A program made the translations under genes and the position numbers. The notes below the pieces were generated by a model, which saw only the letters and a program-made list of their open reading frames with translations, was not told the DNA's origin and did no database searches. A stretch of DNA of 61,572 nucleotides, counting the filler, from Deltaproteobacteria bacterium (GTDB lineage: Bacteria > JAEEML01): assembly GCA_016283195.1 (NCBI GenBank). It is 4 parts of 4 records of this genome, joined end to end, with 100 filler letters (N's around TTAATTAATTAA, not from the genome) between each part and the next. Parts side by side here need not be neighbours in the genome. Positions count along the whole stretch, not along the records: positions 1 to 5,960 come from JAEEML010000043.1; 3 more parts are not named here. One strand, given 5' to 3'. Below, piece after piece: positions 895 to 52,820 of the stretch (positions within the stretch are counted from its first letter, which is position 1; every line of letters starts with the position of its first letter).

Positions 895-1722
895 TTACGG
901 TAATTTAAAAATGCTTTCTGCTATTTCATCCAGCCAGGAGCCCTCGAAAAGCTCAATTTGCCCGGCATCGACGGTGGCAGCCAGCTTGGGATCGAGGGGA
1001 ATCTCGGCGGTGAGCGGAATGCCGTAGCGCACGGCTATTTCATCAATATGGCTCTCGCCGAAAATATGGTGCTCTTTGCCGCAATCCGGGCAGGTGAAGT
1101 AGCTCATATTCTCCACCAGAGCCAAAACCGGCACGCTCATCATTTCGGCCATGCGCACGGCTTTTTCTACAATCATGCCCACAAGCTCTTGCGGCGAGGC
1201 CACAATAACAATGCCGTCAATCGGAATGGACTGAAAGACGGTCAGCGGTACATCGCCGGTGCCCGGAGGCATATCGATAAACATGATATCCTGTTCGCCC
1301 CAGTGCACATCGGTCCAAAATTGCTTTACTGTGCCGGCCAGAATGGGACCGCGCCAAATTACCGGGTCGGTTTCGTGTTCCATCAGTAAATTGAGCGACA
1401 TGGTGGCAATGCCGGTATGGGTCATAACCGGTTCCATACCCATTTCGCCGCCGCCGACTTTTTCTTTAAGCCCAAAGGCTTTGGGAACTGAGGGGCCGGT
1501 TATATCGGCATCCATAATGGCGGTTTTTTTCTCGGCGCGCTGTGCCAAAACGGCCAGGAGTGAGGTAACAAGGCTTTTACCTACTCCGCCCTTGCCGCTC
1601 ACCACGGCAATGACTTTTTTCACTTTGCTAAATTCATTTAGCGGGGCCAAAAGCGCTGCCCGATCCTTAGAAGCGCAATTTTCGCCGCAACTGTCGCAAT
1701 GATGGGTACATTCTTCACTCAT
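895..1722 (-). CDS. mrp: Mrp/NBP35 (ApbC) Fe-S cluster carrier ATPase
   Basis: Deviant Walker A SGKGGVGKS, DADITGPS, PVIWRGP, DMPPGTGD, ENMSYFTCPDC; N-terminal Cys cluster CTHHCDSCGENC. Confidence 0.93.
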   Translation of the reverse strand: MSEECTHHCDSCGENCASKDRAALLAPLNEFSKVKKVIAVVSGKGGVGKSLVTSLLAVLAQRAEKKTAIMDADITGPSVPKAFGLKEKVGGGEMGMEPVMTHTGIATMSLNLLMEHETDPVIWRGPILAGTVKQFWTDVHWGEQDIMFIDMPPGTGDVPLTVFQSIPIDGIVIVASPQELVGMIVEKAVRMAEMMSVPVLALVENMSYFTCPDCGKEHHIFGESHIDEIAVRYGIPLTAEIPLDPKLAATVDAGQIELFEGSWLDEIAESIFKLP

Positions 1723-1758
1723 AATAGCTCCCTGATTTTATGGTTTTTTAGTGCAAAA

Positions 1759-5044: not shown

Positions 5045-5512
5045 ATGACCATGTATATAACTACTCAGGGCTTCAATGTTTTAGCTGCTGAATATAATCA
5101 CTTAAAAAGTGTTGAGCGGCCTAAAGTGGTTAACGAAGTGGCTGAGGCGGCAGCTCTTGGAGACAGGAGCGAAAATGCCGAATATATTTATGGTAAAAGG
5201 CGCCTTAGGCAAATAGATAGCCGGATGCGCTATTTGGATAAGGTTTTTAGCGAGCTGGAAGTGATTAATCCGGCCACTCCGCGCGGGGAAAAGGTTTTTT
5301 TCGGGGCCACGGTTACTCTTTATGACGAAGATCAGGATGCCGAAACAACCTACCAGATAGTTGGCCCCATGGATACTTTGGACGATATACACATCAGCTA
5401 TTTGTCGCCGGTGGGTAAGGCCTTATTGGGGCGCTCTCTCGATGATACCATTACCGTGAGGACGCCCAAAGAGGTGCGGCACCTGACAATCAGTGAAATA
5501 AAATACATTTAG
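5045..5512 (+). CDS. greB: Transcription elongation factor GreB
   Basis: AAALGDRSENAEYIYGKRRLRQIDSRMRYL; ISYLSPVGKALLG. Confidence 0.92.
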   Translation: MTMYITTQGFNVLAAEYNHLKSVERPKVVNEVAEAAALGDRSENAEYIYGKRRLRQIDSRMRYLDKVFSELEVINPATPRGEKVFFGATVTLYDEDQDAETTYQIVGPMDTLDDIHISYLSPVGKALLGRSLDDTITVRTPKEVRHLTISEIKYI

Positions 5513-5598
5513 CAGCGGCTTAGTTTATTGCGCAGTGGCCAAATATTGGGTAGATTCAGCGTTGCATGTGTTGGACCGCTGCGTTAATGAAGATTATG

Positions 5599-5757
5599 AG
5601 TTACAACTATTTCGGGTCTTACGCCTTCTTCTGGTCAAGTACGGAGTACTTTAGTTCCCTCGCATACTACCTGATCGTGGGTAGCAGCAGTGCCGACATG
5701 AACTACAGCAGCAAGACGTACGGCTACTCGGTTCGCTGCCTCAAGGACTTAAACTGA
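5599..5757 (+). pseudogene. Orphan FISUMP (Fib_succ_major) C-terminal segment resembling a DGR variable region
   Basis: Encodes SYNYFGSYAFFWSSTEY...AYYL.V...N..SKTYGYSVRCLKD; 29 of 52 codons end in C; no upstream FISUMP N-terminal part. Confidence 0.75.
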
Positions 5758-5768
5758 GGGCTACCTCA
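5755..5768 (+). other. Short hairpin overlapping the VR-like stop codon
   Basis: TGAGG-GCTA-CCTCA: 5-bp stem with a GNNA loop. Confidence 0.5.
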
Positions 5769-5776
5769 CCCGGTCA

Positions 5777-5848
5777 CCTGACACACTTTGGCACACTTTT
5801 GACACACCTGACACACTTTTGACACACTTTTGACACACTTTGTCAAAA
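5777..5848 (+). repeat. About six 9-11 bp GACACACTTTT-type direct repeats ending in an inverted repeat
   Basis: GACACACTTT, GGCACACTTTT, GACACACCT, then GACACACTTT three times; TTTTGACA-CACTT-TGTCAAAA at 5828-5848. Confidence 0.9.
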
Positions 5849-5905
5849 CAGTGCGAAACACATTAAAGACTCATAATTACAACTTGTTATATGTCTTTTG
5901 AGCTT

Positions 5906-5921
5906 TGGCACGCAATTTGCA
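5906..5921 (+). promoter_or_regulatory. Sigma-54 (-24/-12) promoter
   Basis: TGGCACG-CAAT-TTGCA is an exact consensus match. IHF-like TTACAACTTGTTA lies upstream and RBS AAGGAG at 5953-5958. Confidence 0.8.
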
Positions 5922-5960
5922 TTCAGATGGGCCGGTCAGACTATCTGGCAAAAAGGAGCA

Positions 5961-6060
5961 NNNNNNNNNNNNNNNNNNNNNNNNNNNNNNNNNNNNNNNN
6001 NNNNTTAATTAATTAANNNNNNNNNNNNNNNNNNNNNNNNNNNNNNNNNNNNNNNNNNNN
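5961..6060. other. Artificial contig linker
   Basis: N-run containing TTAATTAATTAA, which places stops in all frames. Confidence 0.97.
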
Positions 6061-7677
6061 GCGGCCGCCCTTAAGGCCGCCCTGGGCAGCGCCCCGCCAA
6101 TTACCGCTACTGAGGCGGAGGCGCTGAAATTTGTTTATAACCGCGCCCCCGGCCCCGGCTATTTAAAGGGCATAAACCACGCGGCCTTGGTGAGCGGCAC
6201 TATCAGCTCTTTTCAGGGACTTATCATCGGAAAGCTTTTGGCCATAGAGCCCCACGCCCTCTATGTAGCGGCCAAAGACGGGGCCCAAAACAGCCAAGTT
6301 TATAAGCTTAAAGCCGGCGACGGCCTGGCTATCGGCTGCCCCGGGGGCGCGGTGAATTATGATGAATGGGCCCAGGGCGGCCGCCTCTATAATATGGAAT
6401 CCTGCCGCTATAAAGGCATAGAGGCACTAAAGCTCACCATCGGCCCGGAGCGGCTTAATCCGGCCAAATTCAAAACCGGGCTTATTGTTTATAAAAATTA
6501 TGATAATGATTTGGCTAAAGAGCTGGAAAAAGCCCTAAAACGGCGGCCGCAGGTTTTTAGCCCCTATACTCTATCCGCCGACCTCACTCTTATCGACCTT
6601 AAAGCCGGCTTAAACTGGCAACTATCAGGCGCTGACGGCCGGCCTTTGGCTGATTTTAGGCAGGATCTCTCAGAGGCTATAGACCAAAATAGCGCCATCA
6701 CTACAGAAATTCTGGCCAAATATCTGGGCCGCCTGGGCGAGACGCCCTTTCGGCTGGGCCCGGTAACTCTTAGCCAAAACGGCCGGGAAGTCAGCGCGCT
6801 GCCGCTGGCTCTTCCCCCCAGCAGACTAAACAATTTGCGCCGGGAAGCGAGCGCCTATTTTGCCCCCTTCTGCCGCCAAGTTCCCAAAAATCAGGCGGCC
6901 AAGGAGTTTTGGCCAAATATAGAGCTAATAGCGCCGAAGGCCAGGAGCCTCTCCGTACTGCTCCGCACCGGCGAACAAGTGCAAGCTCTTTGGGCCGCGC
7001 CGGCAGTAAGTAAGCTAAACATTATTTATTTAGACCTACCGAGCCGGGAATTAGCCGATCTCCTGCCGCTATTAAAGGCGGCCGGCCGCCCCTTTGGGCT
7101 GGCACTGCCCTATATTGAGCTGCCAGGCGATCCTCTTTTTGAGAAAATCCTCGCCTATCAGCCTGAGGCTCTTTTGGTGCGTACTTTAGGCGAGCTTAAA
7201 AAGCTCAAAGATTACCCGGGCCTCCTAGTTGGTGACAGCTCACTGAATGCCAGTAGCTGCCCGGCAGCGGCGCATCTGTTGGCGGCCGGCCTCAGCCGCG
7301 ATACACCAGGCTGGGAGCTTTTAGACTCCGGCGCGGCCCTCCCGGGCGAGAGGAGCTCCCGGCTCGAGCAGCTTATTTATACACACCGCCCGCTAATGGT
7401 CACCCGCCACTGCCTACTGGCCGCCGGGAGCGGCCGCGAGAATTGCCAAACTTGCCAAAATCATGGGCAAAACCGGGCATTTCTCAAGCTGTGGCCGGCG
7501 GATAAAAAGCCGCCCATGCTCTTACGCACAATTTGCGGGCAATATAGTGTTCTCTATAGCCAAAAAGCGGAAACTTTTGCCCCTATGGCTTCCGGCCCCG
7601 GTTTTTACCGCCTGGAGTTTTTGCAGGAAAACGAGGCGGAATTACTGCAAGTTATAGACAATTATCTAAAATTGTAG
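6061..7677 (+). CDS. U32 peptidase family / DUF3656 protein (RlhA-like), 5' partial
   Basis: Open from the gap; YNR..GPGYL.GINH, LGRLGETPF, LPPSRLNNLRR, RPLMVTRHC. Confidence 0.8.
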   Translation, partial: AAALKAALGSAPPITATEAEALKFVYNRAPGPGYLKGINHAALVSGTISSFQGLIIGKLLAIEPHALYVAAKDGAQNSQVYKLKAGDGLAIGCPGGAVNYDEWAQGGRLYNMESCRYKGIEALKLTIGPERLNPAKFKTGLIVYKNYDNDLAKELEKALKRRPQVFSPYTLSADLTLIDLKAGLNWQLSGADGRPLADFRQDLSEAIDQNSAITTEILAKYLGRLGETPFRLGPVTLSQNGREVSALPLALPPSRLNNLRREASAYFAPFCRQVPKNQAAKEFWPNIELIAPKARSLSVLLRTGEQVQALWAAPAVSKLNIIYLDLPSRELADLLPLLKAAGRPFGLALPYIELPGDPLFEKILAYQPEALLVRTLGELKKLKDYPGLLVGDSSLNASSCPAAAHLLAAGLSRDTPGWELLDSGAALPGERSSRLEQLIYTHRPLMVTRHCLLAAGSGRENCQTCQNHGQNRAFLKLWPADKKPPMLLRTICGQYSVLYSQKAETFAPMASGPGFYRLEFLQENEAELLQVIDNYLKL

Positions 7678-8324: not shown

Positions 8325-9935
8325 TCAGTTGCAGGAGCCTTGAACAGCCTGATTTTGAGAAAGCTGTTTGTCACAGCCGGCCACGCCTTCATTGTAGCGG
8401 CACCAGTTGTTCTTAATATCTTCAGCGGAGATGCCGCTGAATTTATGCTTGTTGTTGGCAATCCAAGTGGGGCTGGCGCCGATTTCAAGTTGTTTGGCCA
8501 ATTTGATGTTTTCGCTGTGAAGTTTGCAGCCCTCTTCGGCAATACATTTTTCCATAACCTTCACATCGATACCATCTACAGCACATTTTTGCCAATCGCT
8601 GCTACGGATATCTTTGTTGCGGCAAATGATGTAATCCATGTATTTGTTGTTCTTGGCATAGTGTTTCATAGCGCAGAGTTCGCGGATGTTTTCATCAACT
8701 TCGCCTTGGCCATGGAGAGCATTGAATTTGCAATCGCCAACTTCATCAGCAATGTAATTGATATGGAAATCAATCTTGTCGGCGGGGATGGTATCGAGAA
8801 CCTCTTTCACCGAGTTAAGAGCACGCACGCCATAGGGGCATTGTGACATAACGAATACTTCGAGTTTGCCTTTTACTTCCTGGCGGCAGATGAGAGTATT
8901 GACACAGGTATCATCGGCGCAGTCAACTTTGCCGTTACCGGTATCGTCGATGCCGTTGTCACAAATTTCAGCTGTCGGGTCAAAGTTGCCCATTTCCAAG
9001 ATGCTGTTATCGCCAACTTTTTTAGCTCTCATGATGAAGCGGCGCATCTCGTCAACTTTATTCACATTGGCATCAAAAATCATAACAGGCAGATATTTGA
9101 GGCCGTTATCGGCAAAGATTTTTTTGCCTTCTTCGGTACCGTAATCAACGGCTTTCACTTTGAGGCCGGGCATCATGCCTTGGAAGTGGTTTTGCATACG
9201 AGCAACGCGCATACCGCAATCTTTGCAGCGGCTATCGGAAACAACAGTCATGTTAACTTCCGGCGGCGGGGGCAGAGCGGCACAGACATCCGGTACCTTG
9301 CCATTTTTGTCAAAAGCACCGCAGATAGCGCGCAGGAAAGCATCTTCGCTACGGCCGCCGTTGTAATCTTTACCACCGATTTTCATAGTGGGAGAACCTT
9401 GGGCACCGACTCTTTGCGCTTTGTCAAAAGAAGCAGCGAGAAGGGTTTTGCCTTCTTCACCTTCAAAGCAGGCCTTAACTTTAGCCAAATCAACACCGGC
9501 TTTGGAAGCGCAGCTTTCCCAGTTGCCGGGGATAGCGCGGATATTTTCGTTCATACAGTTAACCATATCCATGTATTTGGCCGGAGAGTGTTTGGCGGCA
9601 CAGAGCTGTACTTTGTCGCCCTGCACTTCGCTATCGCCGTGCATTGAGCTTAAGTTGCCGCCATTATTGGAGCCAATATAATCAATGCTGAAATCAACAT
9701 TGTTGCCCAGTTTTTTGAGTACCGGGTAAATGCCGTCTTCCACCTGTTTACCAAAGGGGCATTGCGACATAACGAAAAATTCCACTTTCACAGCACCGGG
9801 AGCCGGCTTAGCCGCATCGGCAGCAGATTTGGCATCAGCTTTGCCGCTATTGTTGCTTGCCGGAGGACAACCCATAGTTAATAAACCAGTGGCTAAAAAG
9901 CCGGTTGTCACTAGACTCTTTACGATCTTGTTCAT
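8325..9935 (-). CDS. Lipoprotein with tandem GILT/DsbA-like thioredoxin-fold domains
   Basis: Lipobox TMGC; two F(F/V)VMSQCP(F/Y)G...HG..EV...C domains with cis-Pro motifs GSPT and ASPT; EICDNGIDD.GNG.VDCAD repeat. Confidence 0.7.
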   Translation of the reverse strand: MNKIVKSLVTTGFLATGLLTMGCPPASNNSGKADAKSAADAAKPAPGAVKVEFFVMSQCPFGKQVEDGIYPVLKKLGNNVDFSIDYIGSNNGGNLSSMHGDSEVQGDKVQLCAAKHSPAKYMDMVNCMNENIRAIPGNWESCASKAGVDLAKVKACFEGEEGKTLLAASFDKAQRVGAQGSPTMKIGGKDYNGGRSEDAFLRAICGAFDKNGKVPDVCAALPPPPEVNMTVVSDSRCKDCGMRVARMQNHFQGMMPGLKVKAVDYGTEEGKKIFADNGLKYLPVMIFDANVNKVDEMRRFIMRAKKVGDNSILEMGNFDPTAEICDNGIDDTGNGKVDCADDTCVNTLICRQEVKGKLEVFVMSQCPYGVRALNSVKEVLDTIPADKIDFHINYIADEVGDCKFNALHGQGEVDENIRELCAMKHYAKNNKYMDYIICRNKDIRSSDWQKCAVDGIDVKVMEKCIAEEGCKLHSENIKLAKQLEIGASPTWIANNKHKFSGISAEDIKNNWCRYNEGVAGCDKQLSQNQAVQGSCN

Positions 9936-10144
9936 TCTTTTCTCCTTTTTACAATTCCGCCGCTCACCTTATGTGAGACAAACCAATCGGCAAAATCAAC
10001 CCGCAAACTAGACAATTTATTCCTCCTTGGCAATGACTTTTTTCACTTTTTTATTTTATGGCAATAGCCTACCCTATTCCAGCTAACCATTGCAGGAAAG
10101 GTCAAAAAATGTTATTGCCCACTCGCCGGGCTTTGGGAGGTCTT

Positions 10145-10690
10145 GTGTCCGATAATATTTATACCATATTTCCCGATGATTTAGCTGATGAAAGCCACTT
10201 GTCTTTAACCGAGGCGGCTCTTTTACACGAAAGTAAGCGCCAAAGTTATGTTAAAAAAGAAAAGCGCGATTATTCGGCAGCTTATGCCATGATTGGCCAA
10301 AAACCGGCAGAGCGGCATGAAGAGCCGAAAGAGGCCGAAAAAGCCGCTTCTTTAGCTGCAAGTATTCTGCCGGCAGAGCGCTCAAAGGCCGCTTTTATTA
10401 GCCGCGGGCTCAGCAAAAAAGCACCAAATACTCTGGACACTTCCGGAATAAAACAATTTTTGGCCGGTGAAGATCCTGATGGCGGCCATCTTTTTGAACT
10501 GAGTTTTGCCGAAAACCTCCTAGGCGGTTTAAGGTGCTCTTTAAGCAGCTCAGCCGGCCGGGTAAAAGCCGTTTTTTATGCCAGCTCTCATGAAGCAGCA
10601 CGCCGGCTGGAAGAAAATCTGCCTCTTCTCCGCGAAAAACTTTTAAGCCGTGGCCTCCATGTGGACGAACTGGCAGTAAAAGTAGAATAA
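10145..10690 (+). CDS. Protein with FliK/SctP-like hook-length control C-terminal domain
   Basis: C-terminal LGGLRCSL...VKAVFYAS..EAARRLEENLPLLREKL..RGLHV; GTG start after GGAGG. Confidence 0.6.
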   Translation: MSDNIYTIFPDDLADESHLSLTEAALLHESKRQSYVKKEKRDYSAAYAMIGQKPAERHEEPKEAEKAASLAASILPAERSKAAFISRGLSKKAPNTLDTSGIKQFLAGEDPDGGHLFELSFAENLLGGLRCSLSSSAGRVKAVFYASSHEAARRLEENLPLLREKLLSRGLHVDELAVKVE

Positions 10691-10714
10691 CTTATAATCA
10701 AAGGATTTATATAT

Positions 10715-13114
10715 ATGTGGCAAAATGCTATCGGAAAACTGGCCCAAAGTTTGGTAACGCATCCTAAACGTTATGTAACAGCTATTTTGCTGCTAGCGGC
10801 CGCCGCCGGCCTTATTTGCCTTAATTTGCACTTTGATTCCAGCTACGAAGCGCTGCTCCCGGAAAATAGCCCCAAACTAAAAGCCACCGACCAAGTGCGC
10901 GAGCTCACAGGCGGTTTTCGCCAGTTGGTTTTGGCTGTGGAAGGCAGCAGTTTAGAGCGCCTGGCTCTCGCCGAAAAGCTGGCTTTAGCCTGCGAAGATT
11001 TGCCTGAAATAAACCGCGTCGAGCTAAAGCAACCGGTTGATTTTTTTACCGAAAAGGCGCTCTGGTTTTTACCGGAAGATGAGCTTAAAAATCTAAACGA
11101 AACCATAAGCGAAGCCATAGAGGCCAGTTTGGCAGCGCGCGATCCTTTAAATCTCGGCCTGATGGATGAGGAAGAGGCAAAAGAGGAAGAAGAGGAAGCC
11201 TGGCAAGCGGTAAATCAATTAGTGGCTAAGCTGAAAAATAAAATTCCCCAAAAAAATCCCTATCTGGAAAGCAGTGACGGCCGCTATCTTTTTTTGGTAG
11301 CCGTGCCATCAATTAAATTTAGCGATATGCAGGCGGCTATTGATCTTTTAAATAAAATTGAAAAGATTATCGCCTCGCTGGAGCCGCAGAAACAGGGCAT
11401 CAGCGTCTCTATGGCCGGCAATCTGAAAATTGTGGAAGAGCAGCATGAAACCATGACCATCGACCTCACGGTGGCCGCTGTTTTGGCTCTTTTACTCTCG
11501 GTGCTTTTGGTCGCTATTTTTACCAAAAAAATAAGAGCGCCGTTTTTAATCGCCTTAGCCCTTTTAACCGGCATTGCTCTAACCATGGCTCTAACAACAT
11601 TAACTATTGGTAATTTAAATATTATCACCGGTTTTTTAATTTCAGTGATTGTGGGGCTGGGCATCGATTTTGGCATCCATATATATATACGTTACAAGCA
11701 GGAGCTGAAAGCTGCCCCAAGTAGCCCGGAGGCCGCTATGGAAAAGACGGTTAAAGGCACTTTTACCCCGGCCCTCATTGCTGCTCTCACCACCATGGGC
11801 ACATTTTTTTCCTTTTATTTTGCCGAGTTTCGCGGTTTTTCGGAATTTGGTTTAATTGCCACTATTGGTGTGGCTTTTACCTTTATCTCCTCCTTTTTGC
11901 TTTTGCCGCCCCTCCTCGTCTTGCTGGATAAAAAAGCACCGCTTCCCCCAAAAGCCCTGAAAACTAATAAGCCTTTACTCACCTTAAAGCGTTCTATAAT
12001 AGTTATTGTCCTCCTGCTAGCCTTATCGGCTTTTGGCTGGGCTAATGCCACTAAAATTGAATTTAGGAATGATTACAAAAACTTACGCGGCGTCTCTGCG
12101 GCCACGGCCTTTTTGGATTATGTAGATAATGAAATGGGCGGAAGCTTAAGCCCGGCCGTTTTACTCTTTGATTCGCTCACTGATACTCAAAAAGCGGCCG
12201 CCATTTTGCGCGAAGAAATAAAAAAAGAGACCGGCGGCGAAACCGCGCGCGTTTTAAAACTTTTTGCCGCCAGCGATTTATTGCCGCTAAAAAGCGCCGC
12301 TAAAGAAAAAACCATGGAGAGCCTGCGCGATTTGCTCTTGGATGAGGCTCTTAACGAGGCGCTTAATGAGGAGAGTGAGCGCGGCAAAGAGCTCATGAGA
12401 GCGCGCCAAATGGTTAAAGCGGAGCCTTGGACCTTTAATGACCTGCCGCCGGAGCTAAGAGCCCGTTTTAGCACTAAAAACGGCCAAAAGTATCTTCTCT
12501 ATCTCTGGCCGCACCACCGTTATGAAGCCGATTATGAAGCGGCCGCCTGGGAAGAATTATTGGAAAAGCTTTCCGCCCAGCTAACAGCGGCCGGCCTCCC
12601 ACATCTCATGGCCGATGAGACGCTTATTTTGGCCTGGGTTTATAAACTAATTCTGCACGATAGCCCCAAAGTGCTGGCTATCGCCGCTCTCATCACTTTG
12701 CTCTTTTTACTCATCGACCTGCGCTCCTTTAAAAAAGCGGCTCTGGTGGCCACGCCGCTCATTCTCGGCCTCGGCATCTTCTTTGCGCTGATGCGCCTTT
12801 TCAGCCTGGAGCTCAATATGTTTAATATTATTGTCTTGCCCAGCATGATTGGCATCGGCATCGATAACGCCATTCATATATATCACCGCTATAAACTGGC
12901 CGGCCCGGGGCAGCTTGATTTTGTTTTGCGATCCACCGGCGTGGCCGCCTTTTTGGCCACCTCCACCACCATAATCGGCTTTGGTTCCAGCATAGTCTCC
13001 CACATGCCAGGGCTACGCTCTTTGGGGATTTTAGCCATCATCGGCCTCTCGGCTATGTTTTTAAGCGCCGTGGTCTTTTTCCCGGCTCTCTTAAAATTAT
13101 TGGAGCGCAAATGA
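10715..13114 (+). CDS. MMPL/RND family transporter
   Basis: Two-fold repeated transmembrane architecture with GLGIDFGIH and GIGIDNAIH motifs. Confidence 0.9.
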   Translation: MWQNAIGKLAQSLVTHPKRYVTAILLLAAAAGLICLNLHFDSSYEALLPENSPKLKATDQVRELTGGFRQLVLAVEGSSLERLALAEKLALACEDLPEINRVELKQPVDFFTEKALWFLPEDELKNLNETISEAIEASLAARDPLNLGLMDEEEAKEEEEEAWQAVNQLVAKLKNKIPQKNPYLESSDGRYLFLVAVPSIKFSDMQAAIDLLNKIEKIIASLEPQKQGISVSMAGNLKIVEEQHETMTIDLTVAAVLALLLSVLLVAIFTKKIRAPFLIALALLTGIALTMALTTLTIGNLNIITGFLISVIVGLGIDFGIHIYIRYKQELKAAPSSPEAAMEKTVKGTFTPALIAALTTMGTFFSFYFAEFRGFSEFGLIATIGVAFTFISSFLLLPPLLVLLDKKAPLPPKALKTNKPLLTLKRSIIVIVLLLALSAFGWANATKIEFRNDYKNLRGVSAATAFLDYVDNEMGGSLSPAVLLFDSLTDTQKAAAILREEIKKETGGETARVLKLFAASDLLPLKSAAKEKTMESLRDLLLDEALNEALNEESERGKELMRARQMVKAEPWTFNDLPPELRARFSTKNGQKYLLYLWPHHRYEADYEAAAWEELLEKLSAQLTAAGLPHLMADETLILAWVYKLILHDSPKVLAIAALITLLFLLIDLRSFKKAALVATPLILGLGIFFALMRLFSLELNMFNIIVLPSMIGIGIDNAIHIYHRYKLAGPGQLDFVLRSTGVAAFLATSTTIIGFGSSIVSHMPGLRSLGILAIIGLSAMFLSAVVFFPALLKLLERK

Positions 13115-24392: not shown

Positions 24393-24492
24393 NNNNNNNN
24401 NNNNNNNNNNNNNNNNNNNNNNNNNNNNNNNNNNNNTTAATTAATTAANNNNNNNNNNNNNNNNNNNNNNNNNNNNNNNNNNNNNNNNNNNN
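24393..24492. other. Artificial contig linker
   Basis: N-run containing TTAATTAATTAA. Confidence 0.97.
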
Positions 24493-24493
24493 T

Positions 24494-25276
24494 ATAAGGC
24501 AGATTCAAGAAGTGAAGAATGCCATCAAGACCTATGAGCTGTATTCAACTCTGGATGCTTTTAAGGAAAAAGATTTGTTAAAAGCTCATGGGGTGATGAT
24601 GCAGGCTTTACTTGATGACGCCGGAAGCTACAGGCGCGGCGGAGTAGGAGTTTTTGGTAAAGAGGGCATAGTTCATCTGGCTCCGCCGGCTGATAGGGTG
24701 CCCTTTTTGATGAATGATCTTTTTACCTGGCTAAAAAATTCTAAAGACCACCTCTTAATTCGCTCCTGTGTTTTTCACTATGAATTTGAATTTATACACC
24801 CTTTTATTGATGGTAATGGGCGGACAGGGCGGTTGTGGCAATCGCTGATTCTCGGTAAGCTGCACCCTCTTTTTGAGCATTTGCCGGTTGAAAATATGGT
24901 TTATGCCAATCAACAGGCTTATTATGAGGCTATTAATGCCAGCACTGGTGCCGGTGAGTCGGGCCCCTTTATTGATTTTATGCTCAGCGAAATATATAAA
25001 ACACTAAAAGAGCATCAGGGAGCCCAGCTTTCGCTTGGAGGAGCAAATATTGCCGATGAGTTCGGTGTAAAGTTCGGTGTAAAGTTCGGTGTAAATGGAA
25101 AGAAAGTTTTAGAGCTACTAAATTTAAATCCGGCAATTTCGGCTGGCGAGATAGCGGAAAAGCTGGGGCTTAGTAAACGCGGTGTAGAAAAACAGCTTAA
25201 AAAGTTTCGTGATCTAAGGATAATCAGTCGTCAGGGCAGTGATAAAAACGGCCTATGGATTATTAATAAGGAATAG
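24494..25276 (+). CDS. Fic family protein with C-terminal HTH, 5' partial
   Basis: Canonical HPFIDGNGRTGR motif; C-terminal HTH ending RQGSDKNGLW; open from the gap. Confidence 0.9.
   Translation: MRQIQEVKNAIKTYELYSTLDAFKEKDLLKAHGVMMQALLDDAGSYRRGGVGVFGKEGIVHLAPPADRVPFLMNDLFTWLKNSKDHLLIRSCVFHYEFEFIHPFIDGNGRTGRLWQSLILGKLHPLFEHLPVENMVYANQQAYYEAINASTGAGESGPFIDFMLSEIYKTLKEHQGAQLSLGGANIADEFGVKFGVKFGVNGKKVLELLNLNPAISAGEIAEKLGLSKRGVEKQLKKFRDLRIISRQGSDKNGLWIINKE
25059..25094 (+). repeat. Three copies of a 12-bp in-frame repeat
   Basis: AGTTCGGTGTAA three times, encoding FGVK FGVK FGVN. Confidence 0.9.
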
Positions 25277-35693: not shown

Positions 35694-37244
35694 ATGAGTA
35701 AGCGTATGTTCCCCATCGGTATGCAAACATTTAGTGATATTCGCGCGCGAGGTGCTATTTACATAGACAAGTCTGCGCTCATTTACAAGCTGGTAACCGA
35801 GGGCAAAGTCTATTTCCTCTCCCGGCCGCGCCGTTTCGGTAAAAGCCTTTTAATTTCCACCCTTGAAGCCTATTTTAAAGGGCAAAAAGAGCTTTTTAGC
35901 GGGCTTGCCATAGAAAAGCTGGAAAATGAGTGGATAAAATACCCGGTTTTTCGCTTTGATTTTAGTTACAAAAAATCGGCAACACCGGAGGGCCTTTCCA
36001 ATTTAATGGACAATTTGCTCTCCGAATATGAGGCTCGCTATACTGTTCCCAAGGCTCCGGTGAATGATTATGCCCTAAGGCTAAAAAATCTCATCACTAC
36101 TGCCCACGAACAAACAGGGCAACAAGTGGTGATTTTGATTGATGAATATGATGCGCCGCTTTTGGATACCATGGCCGATGCGGCCACCTTTAAAACGCTG
36201 CGCACCATGATGCGCGATTTTTACAGCCCCTTAAAAGCTGCCGATGCCCACCTAAAATTTATTTTTTTATCCGGCATTACCAAGTTCAGCCAGCTCAGTA
36301 TTTTTAGCGAGCTCAATAATCTTAAAAATATCAGCATGAAAGATGAATATGCTGCTCTTTGCGGCATCACCAAAGAGGAGCTAAAAACGGCCTTGCAACC
36401 GGAAGTGGCAGAAATGGCCGCCAAGTTGCAAATTAGTTCTGAAGAGACTTATGAGCTGCTCAAAAATATGTATGACGGCTACCACTTTAGCAAAAATTCG
36501 CCGGATATTTTTAACCCCTTTAGCCTCTTAAATGCTTTGCAGGATAAAGATCTTAATCATTATTGGTATTCCACCGGCACGCCAACGCATCTCACCGAAA
36601 TGGTTAGTAAATACACCCTGCGCCCCGAAGATTTGGAGGGCTTTTTGGCTGGGGAGATGGATTTTAATGTGCCCTTTGAAGGGGCTGAAACACCCATCCC
36701 GGCGCTTTACCAAAGCGGCTATTTAACTATAAAAAAATTCGATGGTTATGATTACATTCTGGGCTTTCCTAACGAAGAGGTTAGAGTGAGCTTTTTAAAG
36801 GGGCTCATGCCATATTATACCAAGAAGACAGCCAGCGAGAATAACTCTGTAATTCAGCGGAGTTTGCGCTTTTTGAGAAATCACGATATTGATAGTGCGC
36901 TCACTCTTTTGCGCTCATTTTTCAGCTCCATACCCTATAATGCCGAGCGCCAGGACGAAGCGCACTATAAAACCATTTTTTATCTTATTTTTACTTTAGC
37001 GAGCGAATACAGCGTGCGCACCGAAGAATGTACTGCCGCCGGCCGATCCGATGCCCTCATCGAGACAGAAGACACCATTTATCTCTTTGAATTTAAACTA
37101 TCCGGCACAGCCGAAGAGGCGCTTAAGCAGATAGATGACAAAGGTTATGCCATAAAATATGCGGCTGGGGAGAAAAAAGTGGTTAAAATCGGCGTTAATT
37201 TTGATAAAGAGAAGCGCACTATCGAGCGCTGGGTAATTGGCTAA
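35694..37244 (+). CDS. AAA-ATPase_like plus PD-(D/E)XK nuclease (PF09820/PF08011-type), copy 1
   Basis: PIG.QTF, SRPRRFGKSL, LIDEYDAP, YDGYHF, GRSD...EFK...EALKQI..KGY. Confidence 0.92.
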   Translation: MSKRMFPIGMQTFSDIRARGAIYIDKSALIYKLVTEGKVYFLSRPRRFGKSLLISTLEAYFKGQKELFSGLAIEKLENEWIKYPVFRFDFSYKKSATPEGLSNLMDNLLSEYEARYTVPKAPVNDYALRLKNLITTAHEQTGQQVVILIDEYDAPLLDTMADAATFKTLRTMMRDFYSPLKAADAHLKFIFLSGITKFSQLSIFSELNNLKNISMKDEYAALCGITKEELKTALQPEVAEMAAKLQISSEETYELLKNMYDGYHFSKNSPDIFNPFSLLNALQDKDLNHYWYSTGTPTHLTEMVSKYTLRPEDLEGFLAGEMDFNVPFEGAETPIPALYQSGYLTIKKFDGYDYILGFPNEEVRVSFLKGLMPYYTKKTASENNSVIQRSLRFLRNHDIDSALTLLRSFFSSIPYNAERQDEAHYKTIFYLIFTLASEYSVRTEECTAAGRSDALIETEDTIYLFEFKLSGTAEEALKQIDDKGYAIKYAAGEKKVVKIGVNFDKEKRTIERWVIG

Positions 37245-45088: not shown

Positions 45089-46636
45089 ATGAGCGAGCGT
45101 ATGTTCCCCATCGGTATGCAAACATTTGGAGATATTCGCCGGCGCGAAGCTATTTATATTGATAAAACAGATCTCATTTATCAGCTGGTGACAGAGGGCA
45201 AAGTCTATTTTTTCTCCCGGCCGCGCCGTTTCGGTAAAAGCCTTTTAATTTCTACACTTGAGGCCTATTTTAAAGGGCAAAAGGAACTTTTTAAGGGCCT
45301 AGCCATGGAAAAACTGGAGAAGGAATGGCTAGAATACCCGGTTTTTCGCTTTGACCTCTCCGGCTCAAAATATACCGATTTGGCAATGCTCCAGGAAAGC
45401 CTGAATTTTATTCTGGCTAAATATGAGAACATTTATGGCCGGGCCCCAAATGCTGAAAAGCCGAGCACCCGCCTCAAATGGCTTATCGAAAGTGCCCATG
45501 CCAAAACTGGCAGGCAAGTTGTTGTTTTAGTTGATGAATACGACGCGCCGCTCCTTGATACGCTGGTTGATGATGCCACATTTAAAGAAATGCGCACTAT
45601 GTTGCGTGACTTCTATAGCCCCTTAAAATCGGAAGATGCCAATTTGCAATTTGTTTTTTTGACCGGCATCAGCAAATTCAGCCAGCTCTCCATCTTCAGC
45701 GAGCTCAATAATTTAACCAATATTTCCATGAATAACGAATTTGCCGCCCTCTGTGGTATCACCAAAGAGGAGCTGAGCGAGCAGCTAGAGCCGGAAATAG
45801 CTAACCTGGCCAAAGCTCTTGGCATTACTCCGGCGTCAGCTCTTTCCCGGCTAAAAAAGAATTACGACGGCTACCACTTTACTGCCAAAAGTCCGGATGT
45901 TTTTAACCCTTTTAGCCTTTTAAACAGCCTCAAGGATAAAGAATTTAAAAATTATTGGTATTCCACCGGCACGCCGACTCATCTCACCGAAATGCTTAGT
46001 AAATACACCCTGCGCCCCGAAGATTTGGAGGGCTTTTTGGCCGGGGAGATGGATTTTAATGTGCCCTTCGATGGGGCTGAAACGCCCATCCCGGCGCTTT
46101 ACCAGAGCGGTTATTTAACCATAAAAAGCTGCAGGCGCAATTTATATACTCTGGGCTTTCCCAATGAAGAGGTGCGTGTCAGCTTTATTAAAGGACTCAT
46201 GCCTTATTATACCAAAACTTCGCTCTCCCAGAACAGCTCTTTTATTGTGCATTTAATGGACGCTCTGGATAATTGCGCCATCGATAGTGCGCTCACTCTC
46301 TTGCGCTCATTTTTCAGCTCCATACCCTATAATGCTGAGCGCCAGGACGAAGCGCATTATAAAACCATTTTTTACCTCATTTTTACCCTGGCCAGCGAAT
46401 ACAGCGTGCGCACCGAGGAATGCACTGCCGCCGGCCGATCCGATGCCCTCATCGAGACGGAAGACACCATTTATCTTTTTGAATTTAAACTATCCGGCAC
46501 AGCCGAAGAAGCTTTAAAGCAAATAGATGACAAAGGTTATGCCATAAAATACGAAGCCGGAGAGAAAAAGGTGGTTAAAATCGGCGTTAATTTTGATAAA
46601 GAGAAGCGCACTATCGAGCGCTGGGTAATTGGCTAA
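45089..46636 (+). CDS. AAA-ATPase_like plus PD-(D/E)XK nuclease, copy 2
   Basis: Same motifs as copy 1; the C-terminal ~117 aa differ at one residue. Confidence 0.92.
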   Translation: MSERMFPIGMQTFGDIRRREAIYIDKTDLIYQLVTEGKVYFFSRPRRFGKSLLISTLEAYFKGQKELFKGLAMEKLEKEWLEYPVFRFDLSGSKYTDLAMLQESLNFILAKYENIYGRAPNAEKPSTRLKWLIESAHAKTGRQVVVLVDEYDAPLLDTLVDDATFKEMRTMLRDFYSPLKSEDANLQFVFLTGISKFSQLSIFSELNNLTNISMNNEFAALCGITKEELSEQLEPEIANLAKALGITPASALSRLKKNYDGYHFTAKSPDVFNPFSLLNSLKDKEFKNYWYSTGTPTHLTEMLSKYTLRPEDLEGFLAGEMDFNVPFDGAETPIPALYQSGYLTIKSCRRNLYTLGFPNEEVRVSFIKGLMPYYTKTSLSQNSSFIVHLMDALDNCAIDSALTLLRSFFSSIPYNAERQDEAHYKTIFYLIFTLASEYSVRTEECTAAGRSDALIETEDTIYLFEFKLSGTAEEALKQIDDKGYAIKYEAGEKKVVKIGVNFDKEKRTIERWVIG

Positions 46637-46785: not shown

Positions 46786-48222
46786 CTAAAAGGTGAGCGC
46801 CAGATTCAAGGAGCCGGATTTTTTGCCGATAACCGGATAAACAGCCATTTGATGCTGTTTTTTTAAATCCTCGAGCCGATGTTTGGTTTTCACTTCAAAA
46901 ACAGTGAAGACAATAGAGCCGGCAATAGCTGCGCCGCCCAGAATCATCATAGTTACCCCCGGGACACCTAAATCTGCATCACCTAAACTGGTGGCGAGTA
47001 ACATTCCGGTGCCGGCAGTAAGAACGAGCGCGCCGGGAATCGCCAGAGCAACCCTACCGGCATGAAAGCCCTTCTTTTTCTTTTCATAACGGGCAATTAT
47101 AGATTCGGTAACCTCTTGGTTAGCTTCGCCTTTTACACAGCGAATTGAGAGATGAGTATCCTTGCTACCGCTGTTTACAGCTACATTGTTGGTATCTACA
47201 TAGAGCCCATAGGCTTTTAGAGCGCCTTTTTCGGTGCTTGACCAGAAATAAGCGGCAGTTTCAAAAGGTGTGCAACCGTGGCGGTCGCAGTAGCCGGCGG
47301 GTTTAGCTCCGAAGCCGGAGGTATTTTTTCCGCCTTCCCATGATGTATCTCTAAGCTTTTCTGAACCTTTTACCCCTTTGCCAACCATGCCGTAAAGAGA
47401 GTCAAATTCCGCTTTTGAAGGCAGGTGCCAGCCACTTGGGCACACTCTTTGGGCATCTTCCCAATTATATAAATAAGCAAATTTTTCTATATCTTTAGTG
47501 GGTTTGTAATTTATCTTATCATCAAGATAGCGCATATTTTCCGTTATCCATATTCTGCCGCCAATGTTGGCAGTTTTATATCTGTTGCCGTCACGCGGAT
47601 CGGTAAAGCCGAAGACATCGCTATCTTCCTCAAAGTTTTTGATGCAGCGAACCGAAAGCCTTTCGGTTGTTTGATTATTGCATTTTTGGGCGGAAACACT
47701 CTCCGGCAATACCGAAAAAGAGAAGGCGTTGATACCGTCGCTATCACACTCGGTGCTGGTCCAGAAGTAAGCGCCGGAACCAAACATGACATAGCTGCCG
47801 GATTCGCTGTAGCCAGAGGGCAGTGCCCCGAAACCTGATTCGTTCTTCCCACCTTCCCAGCTTTCATGGCGGAGATTTATAGCGCCTTCTTTACCGTCTC
47901 CGACATTGCTTAAAAGTCTGGCATATTCTACTCTGGTTGGCAAATGCCAGCCGACCGGGCAAACTTTCTGCGCATCACCGTAGGCATATAAACAGCCGTT
48001 ATCTTTCACGGACGCACCATGGCGGCTATCGACGCTGCAGGAGATATTTTCGCTAATATACTTCATATGTTCGGCCAGCCAAGTCCCGCCGCCGATTTTT
48101 ACTGTTTTGTAAGTGTTGCCGTCGCGACTGTCGGTAAAGGTACCGTATTCCTGCGCCAGAGCCGGAGAAGCAAATGACAAGACAGCCAAACAAATTGCTG
48201 CTTTTAGCCCTAAATTAACCAT
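46786..48222 (-). CDS. Secreted tandem FISUMP (Fib_succ_major) domain protein with hydrophobic C-terminal tail
   Basis: Signal peptide; two FTD.RDGN.YKT..IGG..W..E...CP.GWHLP...GFGA.P.G...FW.STE...S.RC domains. Confidence 0.88.
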   Translation of the reverse strand: MVNLGLKAAICLAVLSFASPALAQEYGTFTDSRDGNTYKTVKIGGGTWLAEHMKYISENISCSVDSRHGASVKDNGCLYAYGDAQKVCPVGWHLPTRVEYARLLSNVGDGKEGAINLRHESWEGGKNESGFGALPSGYSESGSYVMFGSGAYFWTSTECDSDGINAFSFSVLPESVSAQKCNNQTTERLSVRCIKNFEEDSDVFGFTDPRDGNRYKTANIGGRIWITENMRYLDDKINYKPTKDIEKFAYLYNWEDAQRVCPSGWHLPSKAEFDSLYGMVGKGVKGSEKLRDTSWEGGKNTSGFGAKPAGYCDRHGCTPFETAAYFWSSTEKGALKAYGLYVDTNNVAVNSGSKDTHLSIRCVKGEANQEVTESIIARYEKKKKGFHAGRVALAIPGALVLTAGTGMLLATSLGDADLGVPGVTMMILGGAAIAGSIVFTVFEVKTKHRLEDLKKQHQMAVYPVIGKKSGSLNLALTF

Positions 48223-48334: not shown

Positions 48335-48369
48335 GAACTGAACTGAACTGAACTGAACTGAACTGAACT
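48335..48369 (+). repeat. (GAACT)7 pentanucleotide microsatellite
   Basis: Seven perfect copies; a shorter ACTGAACTGAAC lies at 44665-44676. Confidence 0.95.
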
Positions 48370-52720: not shown

Positions 52721-52820
52721 NNNNNNNNNNNNNNNNNNNNNNNNNNNNNNNNNNNNNNNNNNNNTTAATTAATTAANNNNNNNNNNNNNNNNNNNNNNNN
52801 NNNNNNNNNNNNNNNNNNNN
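52721..52820. other. Artificial contig linker
   Basis: N-run containing TTAATTAATTAA. Confidence 0.97.

Follow-up and report, generated by a model that had tools for sequence, protein, structure and literature searches.

A segment of 52 codons downstream of greB, close to a contig end in the draft assembly GCA_016283195.1 (Deltaproteobacteria bacterium), encodes the end of a FISUMP surface protein, and on balance we consider it an inert, untranslated relic consisting of the tail and stop codon of a foreign gene. This reading draws on the lack of a gene body, of a ribosome-binding site (by eye), and of an open frame upstream, where in-frame stops lie just ahead of the fragment; on codon usage that is foreign compared with the host-like usage of the resident FISUMP gene; and on the absence of a template repeat (TR), RT, or Avd from the 61.5-kb window. 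The relic would sit in the spacer between greB and a putative sigma-54-type promoter. The fragment and its 3' flank may have arrived there together, in a roughly 0.3-kb unit whose ends now carry a composite 19-nt repeat, and decay in place from a full gene probably did not occur. The C-ending, TAC-rich codon pattern would reflect the source of the piece (a donor genome rich in C3 or the template of a DGR) and not present activity at this locus.

A FISUMP C-terminus without a gene body

The window, i.e., the whole 61,572-nt stretch of DNA analyzed here, joins four contigs through artificial linkers; features near a linker are therefore at contig ends, and adjacent parts need not be genomic neighbors. 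The fragment is on contig 1, 200 nt short of its end. The features needed to place it are as follows.

Four contigs of 5960, 18332, 28228, and 8752 nt, with N44-TTAATTAATTAA-N44 linkers between them
5961-6060, 24393-24492, and 52721-52820: the artificial N linkers, the first marking the end of contig 1 (1-5960)
4110-5033: cation-efflux gene, upstream neighbor
5045-5512, plus strand: greB, intact, 155 aa, upstream neighbor of the fragment
5513-5598, plus strand: junction from the greB stop to the start of homology, with no FISUMP similarity in any frame
5566-5757, plus strand: longest ORF over the fragment, 63 aa, with in-frame ATGs at 5566, 5587, and 5596
5599-5754, plus strand: the fragment, homologous to the C-terminal third of a FISUMP/Fib_succ_major domain (CLec2-class), 52 codons, C-ending and TAC-rich

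The fragment reads in frame to ...SVRCLKDLN, followed by TGA at 5755-5757. Profile searches matched it to the very end of the family models, at positions 139-187 of 187 in Pfam Fib_succ_major (E 8.8e-6; 26.5 bits vs. a cut-off of 33.9) and 126-176 of 176 in TIGR02145 'FISUMP' (E 2.5e-7; 31.6 bits vs. a cut-off of 41.65). With two thirds of the domain absent, neither score reaches its curated cut-off. The fragment carries every one of the seven residues (W, S, S, A, S, R, C) that are invariant in the family alignment A3, with the C-terminal signature W-S-S ... A ... S-x-R-C present, and none of the N-terminal blocks (WMAENL, YGxLY, CPxGWxLP, LPAGY) was found upstream of approximately 5596 in any frame. 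These matches, together with the stops described below, bear out the proposal of an earlier note on this DNA that only a FISUMP C-terminus is encoded downstream of greB.

Protein searches returned 776 representatives related to the fragment at E <= 1e-3, chiefly long multi-domain proteins, with P0002 (73% identity) as the closest full FISUMP domain and best long relative. An AlphaFold model of P0002 (pLDDT 92.1) places the fragment equivalent at residues ~103-154, which form the last five strands; four helices and one earlier strand of the model have no counterpart in the fragment. Among PDB structures, the model's top match was the C-terminal domain of Legionella Lcl (E 3.2e-3, probability 0.99, TM 0.41/0.47), followed by Bd2740-C, 4eps, and snake-venom C-type-lectin-like chains; TM was low throughout, and a sequence search of the PDB gave no match. 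The model thus appears weakly closest to C-type-lectin-like structures. As the fragment supplies C-terminal beta-strands only, of a domain of some 150-190 residues, it would be unable to fold alone as that domain.

In tblastn searches with FISUMP proteins, 97 of 103 alignments begin at 5590-5632 and two begin further in; the remaining four begin at 5539-5578 (34-36% identity), and of two such early starters that were displayed, one crosses a stop. In-frame TAG stops lie upstream of the fragment at 5521-5523 and 5551-5553. Both being TAG, a reassignment of this codon could in principle rescue the frame, yet the upstream translation shows no FISUMP similarity and we rejected this option for that reason. 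No Shine-Dalgarno-like sequence was seen by eye before any of the three ATGs, and the 63-aa ORF is probably untranslated. Scans of the fragment locus for sigma-70 promoters and terminators gave no promoter-like or terminator-like site, an Rfam search of 5300-5960 gave no match, and neither did blastn of 5513-5960 against phage and plasmid collections.

Upstream, the named relatives of GreB (52-70% identity) came from MAGs labelled Bradymonadia, Myxococcota, or Deltaproteobacteria, and we accordingly regard the host as Bradymonadia/Myxococcota-like. Within the protein collection, the window greB is the sole member of its 90% cluster, and the nearest greB (P0157) is 85% identical. P0157 is on a 5844-nt contig, a length close to the 5960 nt of contig 1; synteny of the two contigs would mean that the assemblies break at matching places. 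Elsewhere in the window we observed, at the beginning of contig 1, a tandem repeat (266-643, 99 nt x 3.8) that encodes ankyrin repeats, a perfect 12-nt x 3.1 repeat inside a Fic/HTH gene (25059-25095), and a pair of AAA-ATPase_like plus PDDEXK_9 paralogues (35694-37244 and 45089-46636) that lie 9392 nt apart and share 73-90% DNA identity in blocks.

Codon usage and the repeats that flank the fragment

One full-length gene of the same family is resident in the window.

46786-48222, minus strand: resident FISUMP gene, 478 aa, two domains

Recounting gave the same codon figures as first reported: third bases in the 52 codons of the fragment were C in 29, G in 11, T in 9, and A in 3, and its tyrosine codons were TAC in eight cases and TAT in one. 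Host background, from 53 window ORFs of >= 150 aa, had a C3 of 0.286 and a TAT:TAC ratio of 492:172, in agreement with the earlier statement that nearby genes favor TAT (which made up 0.75 of the tyrosine codons in a set of 49 ORFs). Binomial probabilities were 3.7e-5 for the C3 of the fragment and 1.4e-4 for TAC. At least 29 C-ending codons occurred in 2 of 3243 host windows of 52 codons, the fragment's C/(C+T) ratio was matched by 0.5% of such windows, and 1.1% were equally atypical in overall codon choice. The resident FISUMP gene, on the other hand, has host-like usage (C3 0.32; 13 TAT, 8 TAC) and, at 42% identity to the fragment, is neither its template nor a near copy.

C-ending codons also occupy scaffold positions of the fragment (CGC, TGC, CTC, GAC). 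In a hand count, 12 of 17 fragment codons aligned to AAY codons of a verified TR (that of locus L018, below) end in C, compared with 17 of the 35 others. The codon pattern of the fragment would be expected from a template of foreign composition and also from a donor genome rich in C3. The spacer upstream of the resident FISUMP gene contains a perfect (GAACT)7 at 48335-48369 with an A/T-rich repeat of 10-11 nt beside it; the two precede a terminator-like hairpin, and the site could be one of slipped-strand change.

The ends of the proposed 0.3-kb unit, and the elements 3' of the fragment, are as follows.

5590-5608, plus strand: composite repeat, left copy, AAG-ATTATGAGT-TACAACT, overlapping the start of homology
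5866-5884, plus strand: composite repeat, right copy, AAG-ACTCATAAT-TACAACT
5779-5841, plus strand: tandem array of about six copies of the 11-nt unit TGACACACTTT (5 matches, 0.55 expected)
5906-5921, plus strand: sigma-54-type -24/-12 motif TGGCACGCAATTTGCA, followed by AAGGAG at 5953-5958, at the contig end

The two copies of the composite repeat are identical and direct in their outer 3 + 7 nt, and their inner 9 nt are exact reverse complements of each other. Including both copies, the unit measures 295 nt and holds the fragment, its stop, the hairpin described below, and the 11-nt array. The gapped composite pattern has two exact matches in the window, with 0.09 expected; a comparable composite arose five times in 20000 shuffles, for a pattern that was defined after being seen. 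Its inner 9-mer ATTATGAGT occurs four times in the window (0.33 expected), with one copy at the start of a ParA-like gene (1717-1725, minus strand).

Two kinds of mobile unit were considered for these ends. A MITE needs terminal inverted repeats directly flanked by a target-site duplication; 5593-5601 and 5869-5877 form a perfect inverted pair of 9 nt, yet the flanking AAG on the left and TAC on the right are no such duplication. For an integron cassette, no fit to the attC core and inverse core was apparent by eye against the consensus. The composite repeat is possibly a trace of how the piece was inserted, and it fits no element tested; an insertion model built on it is post hoc, as the repeat was noticed after the fact.

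The array of TGACACACTTT ends in a TGACA-N5-TGTCA palindrome (5831-5845), and its 11-nt unit is absent from the 67 related loci introduced below. It lies 65 nt upstream of a perfect match to TGGCACGCAATTTGCA, which we take to be a sigma-54-type motif on the basis of the -24/-12 consensus, and the next gene starts past the contig. This motif is the only match in the window, where 0.12 are expected; one was present in 12 of 100 shuffles. Together, the array and motif look like an enhancer-binding-protein array and promoter of a gene beyond the contig.

Possible links to DGRs: machinery, hairpins, and a second copy

The earlier note had proposed a remote DGR target remnant, an ectopic cDNA insertion, or a silent donor cassette. 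No direct support was found for the latter two. For a DGR connection, the family itself is suggestive: in the available part of Wu et al. 2018 (PMC5758913), DUF1566 and DUF823 together with Fib_succ_major form one DGR target class (category d, with CLec2 variable regions [VRs]; 51 DGRs), and remote targets are documented; the portion of Ye 2014 at hand lists Fib_succ_major among human-microbiome DGR targets. At family level the resemblance to a DGR target pointed out in the earlier note therefore holds, and a complete DGR of this type was verified here. A live DGR located elsewhere might rewrite the segment in trans as a gene-less orphan VR, for which 3' recognition elements and short 5' homology would suffice. 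We regard this as unlikely, and the evidence on it is given together with the results that follow.

The window holds no machinery, as the earlier note had said. RVT_1 and bAvd were absent among 52 window ORFs searched with Pfam, and tblastn with the RT, Avd, and accessory ORF of the verified DGR gave no match in the 61.5 kb. A repeat search for a template found no repeat family, and a scan for 'same base or A' on both strands of the window found no template (best non-self score, 119 of 170). Two near-length and five longer protein candidates included no Asn-rich one that could be a template in a stray ORF. A scan of the genome_contigs set returned no match from this genome itself and used 8-residue patterns that probably include variable residues, so a TR could be missed by it. 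The absence of TR, RT, and Avd from the window argues against a remote DGR.

Our comparison set came from the genome_contigs scan and consisted of 67 loci carrying the nearest relatives (best, 64% identity, from a Fibrobacter MAG), with 101 homologous segments, each compared against its own locus to find template copies. DNA similarity of these loci to the fragment was confined to 5599-5749, peaked at 67% (over 132 nt), showed no bias toward adenines, and did not extend to the flanks of the fragment. Only one of the 67, L018, had an RT within the fetched flanks, which again speaks against a remote DGR.

8999-12663 of locus L018 (record OX044349.1, Polaribacter MAG): complete DGR with target, 91-aa ORF, Avd-like gene, TR, and RT

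The L018 target is a 380-aa fn3 plus FISUMP-type protein, the RT has 420 aa, and target gene, Avd-like gene, TR, and RT lie within 2.7 kb; the RT (RVT_1) and the Avd-like gene (bAvd) both score above their Pfam cut-offs. A second Avd-like stretch was observed at 5221-5379 of the locus. The TR lies 1.2 kb downstream of the VR and differs from it by 23 mismatches over 161 nt, of which 21 are at TR adenines and two are not; the VR has one codon more than the TR. Aligned to our fragment, the VR is identical at 24 of 47 residues, and it resembles the fragment in codon signature as well, being C3-rich (0.46 vs. 0.19 for its whole gene, in an AT-rich host) with TAC in seven of eight tyrosine codons. 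Both the alignment and the signature favor a remote DGR. The fragment's extent covers most of this verified VR, a point against a simple relic. The earlier suggestion that homology begins roughly where a VR would begin fits only loosely, since the L018 VR starts 14 codons upstream of the fragment's homology start.

The codon signature also occurs where no RT does. C3 was >= 0.5 in seven of the 101 related segments, none with an RT in the fetched flanks. A local C-over-T shift reached P<0.01 in four of 97 segments (the other four were dropped, having short upstream ORFs), and none of these was RT-adjacent, a result that counts against the remote-DGR reading. The C3/TAC signature in RT-less relatives makes it suggestive and not specific.

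A hairpin over the stop codon was part of the original DGR argument.

5755-5768, plus strand: hairpin TGAGG-GCTA-CCTCA, 5-bp stem and 4-nt loop, enclosing TGA 5755-5757

The structure is present as described, but it is at chance level. Its folding z-score is 0.00, 94 of 200 shuffles fold equally well, and among random 50-nt stretches of the window 5.4% contain a perfect 5-bp stem with a 4-nt loop. It is accompanied by neither a T-run nor a terminator call. In the accessible part of Guo et al. 2011, the phage DGR hairpin/cruciform has a GC-rich stem of 7-10 bp and a 4-nt GRNA loop and lies 4-34 bp past the VR; with a 5-bp stem, three G-C pairs, and the loop GCTA, the fragment hairpin is outside this published pattern, which weighs against a remote DGR. 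In its favor, the L018 stop codon is also under a hairpin with a 5-bp stem and 4-nt loop, and since this verified case is equally small, the published size criterion may not hold for this class.

Hairpins were also observed in three Fibrobacter MAG loci (L001, L007, L017), 21-25 nt past FISUMP stops, with perfect 5-bp stems (~6-8 bp by eye) and 4-nt loops of CTTG or CTCG. In these genes the last ~50 codons are richer in C3 and TAC than the remainder. No RT lies in the fetched flanks, and these could be remote DGR targets or the hairpins merely terminators. In L017, two FISUMP genes (7302-7478 and 2560-2688) share 3' ends that are almost the same, up to and including 11 nt after the stop, with indels distinguishing them in between; four consecutive AAC codons occur in one of them.

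A second copy of the fragment is known as a protein. P0006 (56 aa, NCBI source), encoded by a 288-nt contig of its own, is identical to the window ORF at 50 of 56 residues (89%). It starts MKIM-SYNYFGS, as does the window ORF from ATG 5587, so that the same truncated junction is seen twice, which argues against a one-off chimera. We conjecture that the similar sizes of the 295-nt unit and the 288-nt contig would fit a repeat unit assembled alone. The six differing codons imply at least eight base changes, all explicable at first or second codon positions (synonymous changes being invisible in a copy known as protein only). Of the eight inferred changes, seven coincide with adenines in the aligned L018 TR. 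Tests of this pattern gave P = 0.08, 0.023 (not independent), 0.21, and 0.36; the differences are weakly adenine-like, as far as the inferred bases go.

None of the differences affects a family-invariant residue, and the frame is intact in both copies. If P0006 came from a relative with the 85% greB, the relic would be better kept than greB; if it came from the same population, the locus would be locally variable. The 89% identity of the relic beside the 85% of greB hints at selection, template refreshment, or a same-population variant. A neutral relic should not outlast greB in conservation, and the preserved frame and invariant residues of P0006 thus count against a relic, if it is from that relative; so does the placement of its differences on first and second positions and template adenines.

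Weighing these results, a remote DGR draws support from the target class, from L018 with its aligned VR, codon signature, and hairpin, and from the six non-synonymous differences of P0006 that spare invariant residues, but the statistics on P0006 are weak (P 0.023 to 0.36). The accessible text of Guo et al. 2011 names three things that a recipient needs, and a gene body is not among them; remote, trans-diversified targets are documented, at least in the parts of the literature available. The claim of a DGR-target remnant accordingly stands in part: class, L018, and the second copy agree with it, whereas TR, RT, and Avd are all absent from the window, the hairpin is at chance level and outside the published pattern, and the P0006 statistics are weak.

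Still less probable, in our estimate, is that the segment is an orphan VR kept by a DGR elsewhere through repeated rewriting. Copying from a conserved template would explain why a non-coding tail keeps its frame and scaffold residues, and could also account for the 89% identity of the copies against 85% for greB and for differences at template adenines.

Comparison with known systems and significance

As a putative member of the CLec2-class DGR VRs (Legionella LdtA type; PMC5758913, as far as the available text describes them), the fragment shares the domain class, a C-terminal extent of ~50-65 codons ending ...SVRC..., NNC/TAC-rich codons, and a small 4-nt-loop hairpin at the stop; unlike them it lacks a gene body, has neither TR nor RT nor Avd in the window, and carries a hairpin under the published size. 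More generally, the VR of a DGR is the 3' end of an open gene with a CLec or Ig fold, whereas here the last 52 codons stand alone with no ribosome-binding site. L018 resembles the fragment in its aligned, C3/TAC-rich VR (against its host) and in the hairpin over the stop, and differs in having target gene, Avd, TR, and RT within 2.7 kb and a VR 14 codons longer upstream.

Remote or degenerate DGR targets (Treponema denticola; Thiohalocapsa PB-PSB1, PMC10907252; Trichodesmium, PMC4143802) likewise have a VR-like segment far from the RT. Some known DGR loci lack machinery, and part of these still undergo diversification in trans (PMC10907252, PMC4143802, PMC5758913); in the portions of these papers available, the targets are open genes, unlike the VR-sized tail alone seen here. 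Among the papers listed by our literature search, no mention of an orphan VR or truncated target was found, and such relics may still be reported. Ordinary 5'-truncated pseudogene fragments, acquired horizontally, are like the fragment in being pieces without a ribosome-binding site, in a spacer, with host-foreign codon usage. The fragment differs from such remnants in that its frame and invariant residues are intact in two copies, its extent coincides with a VR, and its unit is bounded by an unusual composite repeat.

Hypervariable or repeated segments frequently break assemblies. An artefact, in which the last ~360 nt of contig 1 were misjoined to greB and the true locus has a gene body, would suit a fragment so near (200 nt) the end of a contig in a fragmented draft, with an abrupt switch in codon usage. 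We judge it very improbable: P0006, on its separate 288-nt contig, has the same junction (MKIM then SYNYFGS), and GC is not discontinuous, at 0.465 in the junction, 0.497 in the fragment, 0.438 downstream, and 0.474 in the rest of the contig (window, 0.47).

A functional element is equally doubtful, whether a small protein, a regulatory RNA, or a silent donor cassette for full-length FISUMP genes. Silent donor cassettes such as pilS and vls are partial copies, without promoters, of the variable portion of a gene for a surface protein. The fragment is likewise a promoterless partial copy, but a single one, with no known expression locus that has matching flanks, and the one FISUMP gene in the window, 42% identical, is too distant for homologous exchange. 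No close full-length partner exists in the protein collections either, P0002 at 73% being the best. Function of some kind would fit the frame and invariant residues kept in two copies, the identity of P0006 (89%) above that of the nearest greB (85%), and a 9-nt left arm, containing ATG 5596, with exact complementarity to a site lying 267 nt downstream. A protein or RNA product is opposed by the lack of a ribosome-binding site (by eye) and of a promoter-like site, by the absence of two thirds of the fold, and by the absence of an Rfam family match.

As it stands, the inert relic that we favor is a point of annotation and quality control: the 56-63-aa ORF should not be annotated as a gene, and the codon anomaly flags foreign DNA near a contig end. 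If the DGR link is true, natural retrohoming would be indifferent to whether its target still encodes anything, and gene-less relics would flag DGRs in fragmented genomes, in which remote targets escape large surveys (Roux et al. 2021). The C3/TAC signature, seen in the fragment and a handful of RT-less relatives, could in that case help to find remote targets. Should the segment be an orphan VR, it would be a sequence maintained by a retroelement and not by selection on a product, and a natural example of gene-less retrohoming.
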